From: Scenedesmus sp. PABB004
Lineage: Eukaryota
Reading direction: 5' to 3'
Length of the DNA stretch: 64,000 nucleotides
Assembly (NCBI GenBank): GCA_014905635.1
Contig: JABVCE010000020.1
Location: 310,001 to 374,000 of the forward strand
The notes under the pieces are model-generated. The model did not search any database and was not told the origin of the DNA. It saw only the letters and a list, made by a program, of their open reading frames with translations. How positions within the stretch are numbered: the first letter of the stretch is position 1; every line of letters starts with the position of its first letter. Position numbers and translations under genes: made by a program. Shown here piece by piece: positions 44,201 to 47,200 of this stretch.

Positions 44201-47200
44201 TCCCCGGCGCGCTGTCGGCGAAGCTGCGCTCCAGGTCGAACGGCGCGCTCGTCACGTAGCGGGGGCCAATCGTCGACGTGACGAAGCGCCGCAGCGCCGC
44301 GGTGAGGCGGTCGGGGCGGAGCGCGCGGAAGAGCAGCAGGCGGTCAAACTCGCGCATGCGCTTCCAGTCGCCCGGCAGCGGCTCGTCCTCTGCGCGTTGA
44401 GCGGGGCAGCGCGGCACAGGCCCGGGCCGGCGCGTTGAGCGGGGCGGCGCGGGGGCCAGAGGGGCGCGCGGCGGTGGCGCGCACCCGGGCGCTCGAGCTC
44501 CATCCACTCGCGCCAGCGCTTGGCGCTGCCCACGAGGTCGTCCGGCAGCGCCGCGTAGTCGTCGAGCTCCTTCAGCGCCTGCACCGCGCCCCACACGCTC
44601 TCGCTCATCCATTCTGGACGGGCAGCCGCGGCGGCGGCGGCGGCGGGGATGGTGGCGCAGGCGCGTGAGAGGGTCGAGGGCGCGCCGCGGCACGCGCGCG
44701 CGCGCGGGGCCGTGTCGGCTGCGCGGCGGCGAGGCGGTGAGAGCGCGCGCGCCGCACCGCTGTGCGGGTTGTCGGCGCCCATCTCCTTGGGCCCGCGCAG
44801 CAGGTACTCAAACTTGTCGCGCTGCAGCTCGCCGCGGCTGCGCAGCACCGCCATGCACAGCTGCGTCGCGACGATGAGCTTGTGCCGCTCAAACAGGCCC
44901 TGCGGCCGGGCGGCGCGGCGCGGCGCGGTGCGGCGGCGCGGAGGCGCGGAGGCGCGCGTCGGCGGGCCTAGCCGCCGCCTGCGCACCCCTGGCGCCGCGC
45001 GCGGCGCTCGCGCGCACGCAGCACGCAGCGCGAAGCACGCAGCGCGCAGCGCGCGCCGCGCGCGCCTGGGCGACGTAGGCAAACATCACGCCGCACGTCG
45101 TCTCGACCAGCAGCTCCACGCGCCGCTCGAGCGGCGCCTCCTCGCCGAGGCGCTCGCCCGGCGGCACCGCGGCCTCGTCGCGGCCGCCGGGGGTCGCGTC
45201 CATGCCCTTCTTGAGGATGGCCACGAAGTTGGCCATGGAGTAGTGGTAGGCGCTGCGTCGTTTGGCGCGTGTGCGCGTGTGGCGGGGCGGGGCGGGGCGG
45301 GGCGGGGCGCGCCGCGCCCCTCCAGCAGCCCTCTGTCCCCCCAGCCACACACAACAAAACGCAACAACAAAACACAGCACAGGCGCGTGCGCTCACCGGT
45401 CGAGGGCGTGGAGGTTGTCCATGAGGAAGAAGACCTGCGCGCCGCGCGCCGCGACAGGGCGGTACACCTCGCGCGCCGCCGAGATGCGGCCCTCGGTCAC
45501 CACGCCCGCCGCGACCTTGTCCGCGATCTCCACCGCCGTGCGCTTGGTCTCCTCCAGGTTCTCAATGAGCTCGATGTCCTCCAGGATGTCGCCCTGCGAG
45601 AGGGGGCAGGGCGCGCGGAGGCGCGGCGCGGCGGCGCGGCGGCGCGGCGGCGCGGCGGCGCGGCGGCGCGGCGGCGCGGCGGCGCGGCGGCGCGGCGGGG
45701 CGGCGGCGCGGCACATGAGCGGCGCGGCACGTGAGCGGCCCGCTGGCGGCTCGCTGGGCAGCCAGGTGTGGCAAAAGCAGGGAGCGGCGCCGCCGCCGGC
45801 CGGCCTAAACCGGCCGCCGCCGGCCGGCCGCCGCGCCCGCCGCGCCCGCCGCGCCCGGCTCTTCGCGCGCGCGCCTGCGCGTTGGCGAGGCGCGCGAGCA
45901 GGCTGTCCTCGAGCTCCTGCAGCGTGATCGTGTACTCGGCGAGCTGCCGCACGAGCGCGCCGGCGGCCTCCTGCAGGTCGGGGCGCTCGTGGTCGACGAC
46001 CAGCGCGAGCAGCTGGTCCTCCAGGCCCTTCTCGGTCACGCAAAAGTTGACGAGCGTCGTCTGCGCCGCGACCTCGGGCTTGTAGTGCGGGTTGGAGAGC
46101 TTGGTCTGGCGGGGGTGTGGGCCAAGCCCCGGCGGCGGCGGCGCGGGCGCAAGGCGGGCGCGGGCGGCGGCGGCGGCGCGTGACGTGCGGGCGGCGCGGC
46201 GGCGGCGGAGCGCCCGCACGCCGCGGCGCCCGCCGGCGCGCCCGCCCCGCCGCCCGCGCTGGCGGGCCTTGCGGGCCAAGGCCAGGGAGCGGTCCGGACA
46301 AGCTCCAGCTTCGAGGGCTTGAGTCGCTCCGGACCGCTCGCTGGCCTGTCCCGCATGGCCCCCCAGCGCCGCCCCGGCGTGGTGCCGCGACACCCGCCGG
46401 CAGCCCCCGCTGCCGGCGCACGCGCGCGCGCGCGCGCTGGGAAGCCTTGCGGGCCAGGCCAGGGAGCGGTCCGGACAAGCTCAAGCGACACGTTTGAGCT
46501 GGTGCGCACCGACCCCTGGCCTGTCCCGCAAGGCCCCCCAGCGCCGCCGCGCCGTGCCCAATCGCCCCTCCCAATCACAAACACACAAGCACACACGCAC
46601 AAGCACACCAGCACAGGCACACGGACGACAGGGCCCACGCACCTGGAGGTAGAGCCTGAACCGCGGGTCGTACTCCACCTCGGCGTCGCCCAGGCGCATC
46701 ACGAGCGACCGGCCGCGCCGCACCGTCGACTTGCCCAGCACCGGGTCGAGCACCGCGTCCAGCTCGGCCGGCAGGTTCTCCAGCAGCAGCGGTAGCCCCG
46801 CCTCGATCGCGCGCAGCACCGCGTCGACGTACTTGGGCGCGCCCTGCTGCAGCGTGACCAGGCCCGCCGCCTCCTCGCGGCGCTTGACCCACTTGATGCC
46901 CTGCGCCGCGCGGCGCGTGCGCGGGGCATGGGGCGCGGCGGGGTTGACCACGCGCGTGCGCTGGGGCCGGCGCCTCCCTCGGCGCGCCGCGCGCCGCGCA
47001 GCCGCCGCCACGCAGCCGCCGCGCAGCCGCCGCGCAGCCGCCGCGCGGCCGCTGCACAGCGCGCCTGGAGCTGTGGGTCGATCATGAGCGGCCAGCGCGC
47101 GGCGTTGGTCATGATCGCGCCGTTCTCCACGCTCAGCGGGTCGACGGGCAGGCCCTCGTTGGCCCAGCGCGCGCGCGCCGCGCCGTCGGTCAGCAGGTCG

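Follow-up and report, generated by a model that had tools for sequence, protein, structure and literature searches.

Palindromic hairpins in introns of an outer-arm dynein heavy chain gene of Scenedesmus sp. PABB004

Introduction

In the chlorophycean alga Chlamydomonas reinhardtii, introns of protein-coding genes contain long, near-perfect stem-loops that act as miRNA precursors, such as that of cre-miR1157 within intron 22 of Cre12.g537671 (Valli et al., 2016, PMC4817775). That study describes nine high-confidence miRNAs as intron-derived, reports that their biogenesis proceeds without a need for splicing and that hairpins embedded in mRNA are cut directly by DCL3, and demonstrates processing with small-RNA reads and dcl3 mutants. 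Short palindromic sequences also belong to MITEs and foldback elements, which according to Guo et al. (2022, PMC9641971) have given rise to miRNA genes in green algae and land plants. A third source of near-perfect inverted repeats in non-coding DNA is replication template switching, which creates a hairpin in one step and leaves clustered differences that turn one arm into the reverse complement of the other, as inferred from dated comparisons of species (Monttinen et al., 2023, PMC10710096; Monttinen and Loytynoja, PMC8794818). Finally, the organelles of the chlorophycean Volvox carteri carry selfish short palindromic repeats that inflate intronic and intergenic DNA, average ~50 nt, feature loops of the TAAA/ATTT type, and have inert nuclear copies that are explained as organelle transfers (Smith and Lee, 2009, PMC2670323).

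Here we describe hairpins within a 64,000-nt stretch of the Scenedesmus sp. PABB004 genome (contig JABVCE010000020.1, positions 310,001 to 374,000 of the forward strand), which we refer to in full as the window. Two of them, A and B, share a single intron of a dynein heavy chain gene and had been proposed, in what we call the original prediction, to form an intronic miRNA cluster; a third copy, C, lies in another intron of the same gene. As for the C. reinhardtii precursors, the stem-loops of A and B do not abut splice sites, which indicates that they are not mirtrons. They differ from those precursors in that they are known from DNA alone and in that their proposed mature sequence is absent from C. 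Hairpins A, B, and C resemble the elements described by Guo et al. (2022, PMC9641971) in their small size and lack of coding capacity, in an interior that varies between conserved terminal inverted repeats, in occurring as several intronic copies, and in having transcripts that fold into hairpins able to become miRNA genes. Unlike MITEs, they have no recognizable target-site duplication and no known transposase or autonomous partner, and their copies are known from one gene. The differences between A and B are clustered as in the template-switch hairpins, whereas the present hairpins come from one genome with no outgroup, and A, B, and C additionally need copying. In contrast to the repeats of V. 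carteri, they are 90-140 nt long with ~70-80% G+C and occupy nuclear spliceosomal introns.

Results and Discussion

The longest mapped intron of an outer-arm dynein gene contains two hairpins

Alignment of the homologous dyneins P0003 and P0004 by tblastn, combined with a codon-periodicity map, places a dynein heavy chain gene on the minus strand at 42249-57351, and the gene probably extends beyond this mapped part, up to the end of the window. The best solved-structure match is the outer-arm beta heavy chain of Chlamydomonas (7kzm_B, E 2.7e-31; the next chain scored 3.5e-17), which bears out the earlier assignment of the host as a flagellar dynein and marks the gene as encoding a beta-type outer-arm chain. 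The intron that contains A and B (46106-46642, minus strand, GT..AG) separates an upstream exon at 46643-46900, which encodes 86 aa of the dynein AAA lid region (Pfam PF12781 in relatives), from a downstream exon at 45896-46105, which shows 93% identity to residues 839-909 of P0003. Read on the minus strand, the last letters of the upstream exon are ...TAC CTC CAG at 46643, followed by GTGCGT, and the intron ends with ...CCAG at 46106 and is followed by ACC AAG CTC. Because the two exons adjoin in homologous dyneins (P0003 ~838/839), no exon is hidden inside the intron. This splice-site reading gives a length of 537 nt, which is the longest among the 37 mapped introns and agrees with the claim that the intron is unusually long, in that the 32 introns without hairpins range from 86 to 338 nt with a median of ~151 nt; intron lengths are approximate, as the 37 introns were read off the ends of tblastn HSPs. 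The placement of A and B inside a real dynein intron implies that they are co-transcribed with dynein.

Hairpin A spans 46256-46369 and hairpin B spans 46434-46552, so that the intron holds two foldbacks of ~115 nt each at a distance of 64 nt, as had been predicted. Between the 5' splice site and the start of hairpin B there are 90 nt, and 150 nt separate the end of A from the 3' splice site. We therefore rejected both a mirtron, whose ends would coincide with the splice sites, and an introner or introner-like element, which would occupy the intron completely and contribute a splice site; hairpin C and two further hairpins described below, H50 and H54a, are likewise internal to their introns.

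Both hairpins are outliers in minimum free energy (MFE) after correction for GC content in energy scans of the window. The segment containing A (46256-46375) folds with -94.5 kcal/mol relative to a shuffle mean of -59.6 (z -8.5), and the segment containing B (46430-46552) folds with -98.5 kcal/mol (z -12.3), with 0 of 200 shuffles as stable in either case. Folding of both strands, which the original prediction had put forward as a check, yielded similar energies, with -94.5 (+) and -92.0 (-) kcal/mol for A and -98.5 (+) and -99.0 (-) kcal/mol for B, the minus-strand values corresponding to z scores of -7.8 and -8.3, respectively. The arms of B are 62 nt long and 81% complementary.

The left arms of A and B are nearly identical, as originally described: they have in common a block of 39-40 nt, GCCTTGCGGGCCA[A]GGCCAGGGAGCGGTCCGGACAAGCTC, with a single 1-nt indel, which lies on the plus strand at 46266-46305 in A and at 46444-46482 in B. 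This block holds the reverse complement of the proposed 21-mer, which is located on the minus strand at 46281-46301 in A and at 46458-46478 in B. A 26-mer core of the left arm occurs exactly twice in the window at ≤3 mismatches, with 0.00 occurrences expected. The right arms have diverged, which also agrees with the prediction: over the inner 18 aligned columns, A and B differ at seven positions on the right and at none of 18 on the left (p 0.008). However, this asymmetry is significant only for the inner segment, which was picked post hoc; over the whole arm, the differences are 4/47 on the left and 9/46 on the right (p 0.15). The claim that both right arms still pair with the left arm holds for A, in which one position opposite the 21-mer is unpaired, but less well for B, in which four are unpaired, which indicates that the right-arm changes in B are not structure-preserving. 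All of these unpaired positions are symmetric 1-nt loops, and B is still inside miRNA-like pairing tolerance.

The inner right-arm differences have a block pattern. Hairpin A carries the left-arm type (AGCGGTCCGGA), an exact reverse complement, along 12 nt, of the left arm of A itself, and B carries GGGGTCGG, as does C. No counterpart of the 34-nt spacer follows B, and TRF detected no period of ~177 nt at A and B, which together indicate that the pair is not a plain head-to-tail duplication. An unchanged inner left arm would also fit a selected small RNA.

A third copy shares only the outer arms

Hairpin C (56095-56219; -103.8 kcal/mol, z -11.1) lies 9.7 kb from the A/B pair, in the intron at ~55957-56274 of the same dynein gene. 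Its similarity to A and B is confined to the outermost ~28 nt of either arm: C differs from A and B at 3-5 of 28-29 columns in the outer block and at 9-15 of 18 columns in the inner block, which holds most of the proposed 21-mer. The original argument, in which one conserved arm was taken as the signature of a miRNA family, therefore does not extend to the third copy. The outer arm that defines the family, CTGGnGGGCCTTGCrGGCnAGGCCAGGG with its inverted copy, is kept on all six arms of A, B, and C as conserved terminal inverted repeats. A degenerate 22-mer from this outer arm matches five of the arms, with 0.04 matches expected, and a profile built from all six retrieves these arms and no others (E 6e-16 to 1e-12; next match, E 0.9). 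The elements are 114-125 nt long and almost all stem, with no coding capacity. A miRNA family accounts for conserved ends around a variable interior no better than terminal inverted repeats do. Among the three copies, 10 of 46 consensus pairs stay paired through changes on both sides, which would also fit selection on the hairpin.

Based on these features, we favor the view, to which we assign roughly an even chance, that A and B are two copies of a palindromic repeat of the foldback or MITE-like type, which is short (~115-145 nt), rich in GC, and non-coding. Such an element would have been copied at the DNA level into introns of this single dynein gene. Its copies would ride as passengers of the pre-mRNA, fold into stems of 45-50 bp, and leave with the intron, with longer host introns as their main demonstrable effect. 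That A and B are identical in the inner left arm would then best be read as the mark of a block event between or within copies, either gene conversion or a template switch that replaced a block of the right arm, and such an event would not require selection on a mature small RNA.

The distribution of the family is narrow. The remaining ~54 kb of the window contains no further copy, and the three known copies all lie within 10 kb of one gene, a confinement that would not be expected for a mobile family that is genome-wide. Six metagenome DNA runs, and no RNA run, matched sampled words, at small shares of 0.06-0.18 that bear on neither habitat nor expression. In exact-pattern scans of metagenome contigs, the outer-arm pattern occurs at 21 loci, all of them single, with an inverted partner within 260 nt at none of the 21 and with homology that stops at the edges of the pattern. 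Contigs of prokaryote genomes contain 26 loci, and none of these has a foldback partner; each of the two collections probably lacks the source alga. Two pattern matches on one prokaryote contig belong to a repeated bacterial sequence of ~54% G+C and were rejected as members of the family. Inspection of the target sites of A, B, and C revealed GC-only, low-complexity flanks and blurred palindrome ends, with no recognizable duplication.

Unrelated palindromes occupy other long introns of the same gene

Three palindromes unrelated to A, B, and C also lie in introns of the dynein gene. H50 (50726-50864), which is nearly perfect, has 65-nt arms and folds with -121 kcal/mol (z -9.2) in the intron at ~50641-50960. 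H54a (54506-54630) has 45-nt arms that are 93% complementary (-117.5 kcal/mol, z -11.4; intron ~54388-54713), and the shorter H54b (54940-55030) folds with -75.3 kcal/mol (z -8.3; intron ~54825-55064). None of the three has a paralogue in the window. All six hairpins are thus intronic and leave the exons free, over a span of 10 kb in one gene, and this intron-only placement fits real insertions filtered by selection. Their two strands fold equally, with summed MFE of -600.8 (+) versus -603.0 (-) and 8 versus 11 G-U pairs. An inverted duplication of a local exon or target was rejected as their source, as the arms of all six match only low-complexity GC runs elsewhere in the window.

The introns that bear hairpins measure 261, 318, 320, 329, and 537 nt and are five of the seven longest among the 37 mapped; the remaining two of these seven contain microsatellite or tandem repeats. 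After subtraction of the hairpins, the host introns measure 170-204 nt, or 304 nt for the double-hairpin intron, relative to the median of ~151 nt for the 32 others, which indicates that the hairpins make up most of the extra length. The third copy, the unrelated palindromes, the intron lengths, and the strand-equal folding move the reading towards a family of palindromic repeats.

The same observations bear on whether the palindromes were instead born locally, through replication template switching or fold-back repair in GC-rich introns, with A, B, and C as local segmental copies that involved no transposition. Such an origin would account for the three of six hairpins with no relative in the window, for the position of all six within 10 kb, and for the arms of H54a, whose complementarity suggests a recent origin, and the blockwise right-arm differences between A and B are the pattern reported for template switching (PMC10710096, PMC8794818). 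However, it is the removal of whole hairpins, not of single arms, that returns the introns to near typical length, which fits an insertion of both arms together. Furthermore, C has both termini of A and B but another interior, where a plain segmental copy predicts otherwise, and a search of the surrounding window turned up no sequence from which any arm could derive. We consider a purely local birth unlikely.

That hairpins occur only in the longest introns could also mean that they are structural elements, kept to fold away long insertions and approach the splice sites or to tune splicing. Folding would cut the effective length of the 537-nt intron by ~230 nt, and the pairs preserved through double changes are in keeping with such a role. 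Yet the extra length is caused by the hairpins themselves, 32 of the 37 mapped introns have no hairpin, there is no strand bias, and the arms are only ~80% complementary, which is about the divergence of copy A from copy B and looks like decay instead of maintenance. A structural role is therefore very improbable in our assessment.

Some errors of amplification and assembly are known to produce palindromes, and chimeric inverted joins could generate hairpins of this kind. Such an artefact is hard to reconcile with arms that are imperfect and contain substitutions and indels, with three copies that are mutually diverged, and with six hairpins that are all intronic while exons and reading frames are intact, and we give it almost no credence.

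The hairpins as candidate small-RNA precursors

With respect to the proposed miRNA family, the flagellar dynein host, the real intron, and the precursor-like structure stand, but the argument from the conserved arm does not. More broadly, the hairpins could be genuine intronic small-RNA precursors, excised from the dynein pre-mRNA or from the excised intron by a DCL3-like Dicer, whose product would be a selected miRNA or hairpin-siRNA family acting in trans, or would act in cis to damp the host transcript. In support of this, the hairpins combine length and stability with near-perfect pairing, paralogous members occur on one transcript, and six are concentrated in one gene. A single-strand hairpin with few duplex mismatches, as expected of miRNAs of the plant and Chlamydomonas type, is present in A and in B (z -7.8 to -12.3), where the 21-mer duplex has one and four unpaired positions, respectively, and both counts are within the tolerance of plant miRNA criteria. 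The constant inner left arm of A and B with its changed partner arm and the compensatory pairs among copies can likewise be read as support for precursors. The intronic miRNAs of Chlamydomonas provide a precedent, and the statement in the original prediction that many Chlamydomonas miRNAs derive from intronic hairpins accords with Valli et al. (2016, PMC4817775), who place 61.1% of high-confidence miRNAs in introns or UTRs.

Several results weigh against small-RNA precursors. Conservation of the mature sequence across paralogous hairpins, which miRNA families are expected to show, does not extend to C: the proposed 21-mer is found only in A and B. At ≤3 mismatches, the 64-kb window holds no complementary sites besides the sources, and neither G-U pairs nor folding energy favors one strand. 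The hairpins reach no Rfam family, with mir-3718 as the best match (39 bits vs a gathering score of 78) and mir-874 scoring 26.7 vs 74, and the whole window yields no match at gathering thresholds; we attribute these sub-threshold miRNA look-alikes to the chance similarity of one GC-rich hairpin to another. By the account of Valli et al. (PMC4817775), no more than a few dozen Chlamydomonas loci qualify as miRNAs, which to us implies a low prior for any single intronic hairpin. Taken together, we regard genuine small-RNA precursors as a doubtful candidate.

A more specific version, which we judge quite improbable, is that the six hairpins form a selected, gene-specific set of Dicer substrates, such that nuclear dicing of hairpins in five introns would throttle the outer-arm dynein pre-mRNA during times when the alga has no flagella and the conserved 22-nt outer-arm block of A, B, and C would give rise to a small-RNA family. 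Such a set would account for the accumulation of unrelated palindromes in this gene and for their absence from the rest of the 64 kb. The palindromic repeats that we favor are themselves plausible Dicer substrates if this chlorophycean alga has a Chlamydomonas-like pathway, in which case they would be natural substrates and the stock from which young miRNAs arise.

As passengers, the hairpins would offer a clean, small example of intron lengthening by palindromic repeats in a green alga with an extremely high GC content, and also a source from which young algal miRNAs may be drawn. If they are diced, a flagellar motor gene of an alga other than the model Chlamydomonas would contain a cluster of intronic hairpins, which would let cis-regulation of a host gene by such hairpins be tested. 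Under either reading, it is a concrete and checkable oddity that a single gene gathers six palindromes. The next tier of apparent hairpins in the energy scan, at 33051, 35361, 43671, 47541, 58511, and 60001 among other positions, consists of low-complexity repeats such as (GCGCA)n and was set aside.

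Host intron and dynein gene

Reading of the splice sites on the minus strand placed an exon end (...TAC CTC CAG) at 46643, followed by GTGCGT, and the intron end (...CCAG) at 46106, followed by an exon that starts ACC AAG CTC. The host intron therefore covers 46106-46642 (537 nt), as originally predicted. Two homologous dynein fragments, found via the upstream exon, span the junction gap-free in protein coordinates; by tblastn, alignment to one of them, P0003, up to residue ~838 ends at 46643, and residue 839 begins at 46108. This gap-free alignment excludes an exon hidden within the intron. 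The upstream exon best matched the Chlamydomonas flagellar outer-arm beta heavy chain (7kzm_B, E 2.7e-31), whereas the second-best chain, the alpha heavy chain, gave E 3.5e-17, which bears out a flagellar dynein as the host. The closest named proteins are transcriptome fragments, with 45-93% identity per aligned piece, from the scenedesmacean green algae Flechtneria rotunda and Enallax costatus. Based on tblastn pieces, the gene, made up of short exons on the minus strand, extends from ~42.25 kb to past 57.35 kb. A codon-position G+C map showed strong codon periodicity over the window. The same map displayed short coding-like segments densely packed on both strands of the whole window, with homology checked in the dynein gene only, and G+C content per 2-kb step was 71-83%, mostly ~78%, which is extremely high for a eukaryote.

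Hairpins in the host intron and a third copy

Folding of both strands recovered the two hairpins predicted within the intron. Hairpin A (46256-46369, folded as 46256-46375) had a minimum free energy of -94.5 kcal/mol, compared with -59.6 +/- 4.1 for shuffled sequences (z -8.5), and hairpin B (46434-46552, folded as 46430-46552) reached -98.5 kcal/mol (z -12.3); for each, 0 of 200 shuffles were as stable, and the reverse strands gave -92.0 and -99.0 kcal/mol, respectively. The left arms are nearly identical, as had been noticed, with a single 1-nt indel between the common blocks in A (46266-46305) and B (46444-46482). At <=3 mismatches, the window contains exactly two instances of a 26-nt core of this block, compared with 0.00 expected.

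A BLAST search of the window with the repeat unit found 56094-56206, which belongs to a third, 125-nt hairpin, C (56095-56219; -103.8 kcal/mol, z -11.1), in a different intron of this dynein gene (~55957-56274). In alignment, C resembles A and B in the outer portion of each arm and hardly elsewhere: arms of A/B and C differ at 3-5 of 28-29 outer-block columns and at 9-15 of the next 18 columns inward. A degenerate outer-arm 22-mer matched five arms of the three hairpins, compared with 0.04 expected in the window, and missed the sixth, the left arm of A, only because of its 1-nt indel. A profile built from all six arms returned exactly those arms (E 6e-16 to 1e-12; next E 0.9); the window has no additional whole or solo copy. 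The 21-mer proposed as a mature miRNA from the conserved arm (minus strand) lies mostly within the inner part and is present in A and B only. Therefore, the family-wide conserved element is the terminal inverted repeats rather than the proposed mature sequence, and the original reading of the conserved arm as a miRNA-family signature is not supported by the comparison with C.

The best-supported reading, to which we assign about an even chance, is that A, B, and C form a small palindromic non-coding repeat family of the foldback or MITE kind, passive in pre-mRNA. Such a repeat would have spread into introns by DNA-level copying, and the intronic copies would ride passively in the pre-mRNA. The hairpin flanks are GC-only, which makes target-site duplications illegible there. 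It is possible, although unlikely, that the hairpins are instead small-RNA precursors. Many Chlamydomonas miRNAs arise from intronic stem-loops, as had been claimed, and splicing is dispensable for their biogenesis, according to one report (PMC4817775); miRNAs derived from MITEs are described for green algae in another (PMC9641971). However, the proposed mature sequence is not conserved in C and has no target sites in the 64-kb window, and the hairpins match no Rfam family.

A foldback partner of the exact outer-arm pattern was absent from all 21 metagenome-contig and all 26 prokaryote-contig loci, which are single chance matches. Two loci (L035 and L047) that carry the pattern share one bacterial MAG contig of ~54% G+C, where they are separated by 16 kb and have identical flanks; this is a bacterial repeat with no relation to the algal family, and they were rejected as members of it.

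Divergence and pairing of the arms

Over the inner 18 columns, A and B differ at none in the left arm and seven in the right (Fisher p 0.008, to be read in light of a segment picked post hoc, after the data were seen); when the count starts at the CTGG end and takes in the whole inner part, left and right differences number 4/47 and 9/46 (p 0.15). The diverged right arms had been predicted still to pair; opposite the 21-mer, one position is unpaired in A and four are unpaired in B, where the right-arm differences are not structure-preserving. The inner right arm of A reads AGCGGTCCGGA, the type seen in the left arms and, over 12 nt, a perfect reverse complement of A's own left arm; that of B starts GGGGTCGG, as do both arms of C. 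These inner-arm states form a block pattern that, with two copies, one conversion or template-switch event explains as well as selection does. RNAalifold of the three copies gave 46 pairs, 10 of which stay paired through changes on both sides; this shows that palindromy was kept or regenerated amid sequence change and is mute on whether at the RNA or DNA level. Strand bias was absent from six hairpins of the gene (A, B, C, and three described below): their summed plus-strand and minus-strand energies are -600.8 and -603.0 kcal/mol, and their G-U pairs number 8 and 11, respectively.

Other hairpins and intron lengths

When the whole window was folded in sliding 130-nt segments and energies were regressed on G+C, exactly five regions fell below -3 SD: A, B, 50721-50870, 54481-54660, and C. 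A 90-nt scan yielded 11 regions below -2.7 SD, of which six were of high complexity (4-mer diversity 0.63-0.77): A, B, C, H50 (50726-50864; -121 kcal/mol, z -9.2), H54a (54506-54630; -117.5 kcal/mol, z -11.4), and H54b (54940-55030; -75.3 kcal/mol, z -8.3). The latter three are unrelated to A/B/C and have no relatives in the window beyond low-complexity matches. The other five regions (4-mer diversity 0.24-0.48) were set aside as low-complexity GC repeats. At 58510-58655, within a dynein intron, a long and imperfect array of the pentamer (GCGCA)n scored as a hairpin in the energy scans and was rejected as low-complexity sequence. At 43652-43778, an entire 113-nt intron (~43655-43767) self-folds with 62-nt arms that are 73% complementary; as low-complexity GC-rich sequence, it was left out of the count.

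All six hairpins are intronic, distributed over five introns at 46.2-56.2 kb, with none in exons or in the other ~54 kb of the window. Among 37 dynein introns mapped from tblastn pieces, with approximate ends, the 32 that lack a hairpin measure 86-338 nt (median ~151), which confirms the host intron as unusually long. The hairpin-bearing introns (~261, 318, 320, 329, and 537 nt) are five of the seven longest; without their hairpins they measure 170, 193, 181, 204, and 304 nt, and thus their excess is largely the hairpins themselves. Typical length is reached on removing a whole hairpin rather than a single arm.

The gathering of unrelated palindromes in one gene is odd. If A/B/C share a single origin and each of the other three arose separately, and if the dynein gene holds, as estimated from tblastn and the codon map, roughly 1/3 to 2/5 of the window's non-coding sequence, the chance of every origin falling in this gene is about a few per cent, which is suggestive, not compelling. 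A third possibility is a purely local origin through template switching followed by local copying (cf. PMC10710096 and PMC8794818). This fits the occurrence of unrelated hairpins and their clustering and, less well, the length excess by whole elements and the termini that C has in common with A/B.

The two longest hairpin-free introns carry a (CA)n microsatellite and an 8-nt tandem array, respectively. The (CA)n/(GT)n tract (48043-48216, ~44 four-base units) makes up much of the longest, ~47880-48223. The array of GCGGCGCG (45623-45712; 97% matches over 11 copies) belongs to the intron next downstream of the host intron, ~45600-45895. Within the host intron, toward its 3' splice site (left of A on the plus strand), a degenerate GGC-rich tandem repeat at 46130-46229 (~29-32-nt unit, 2.4-3 copies) adds length independently of the hairpins.
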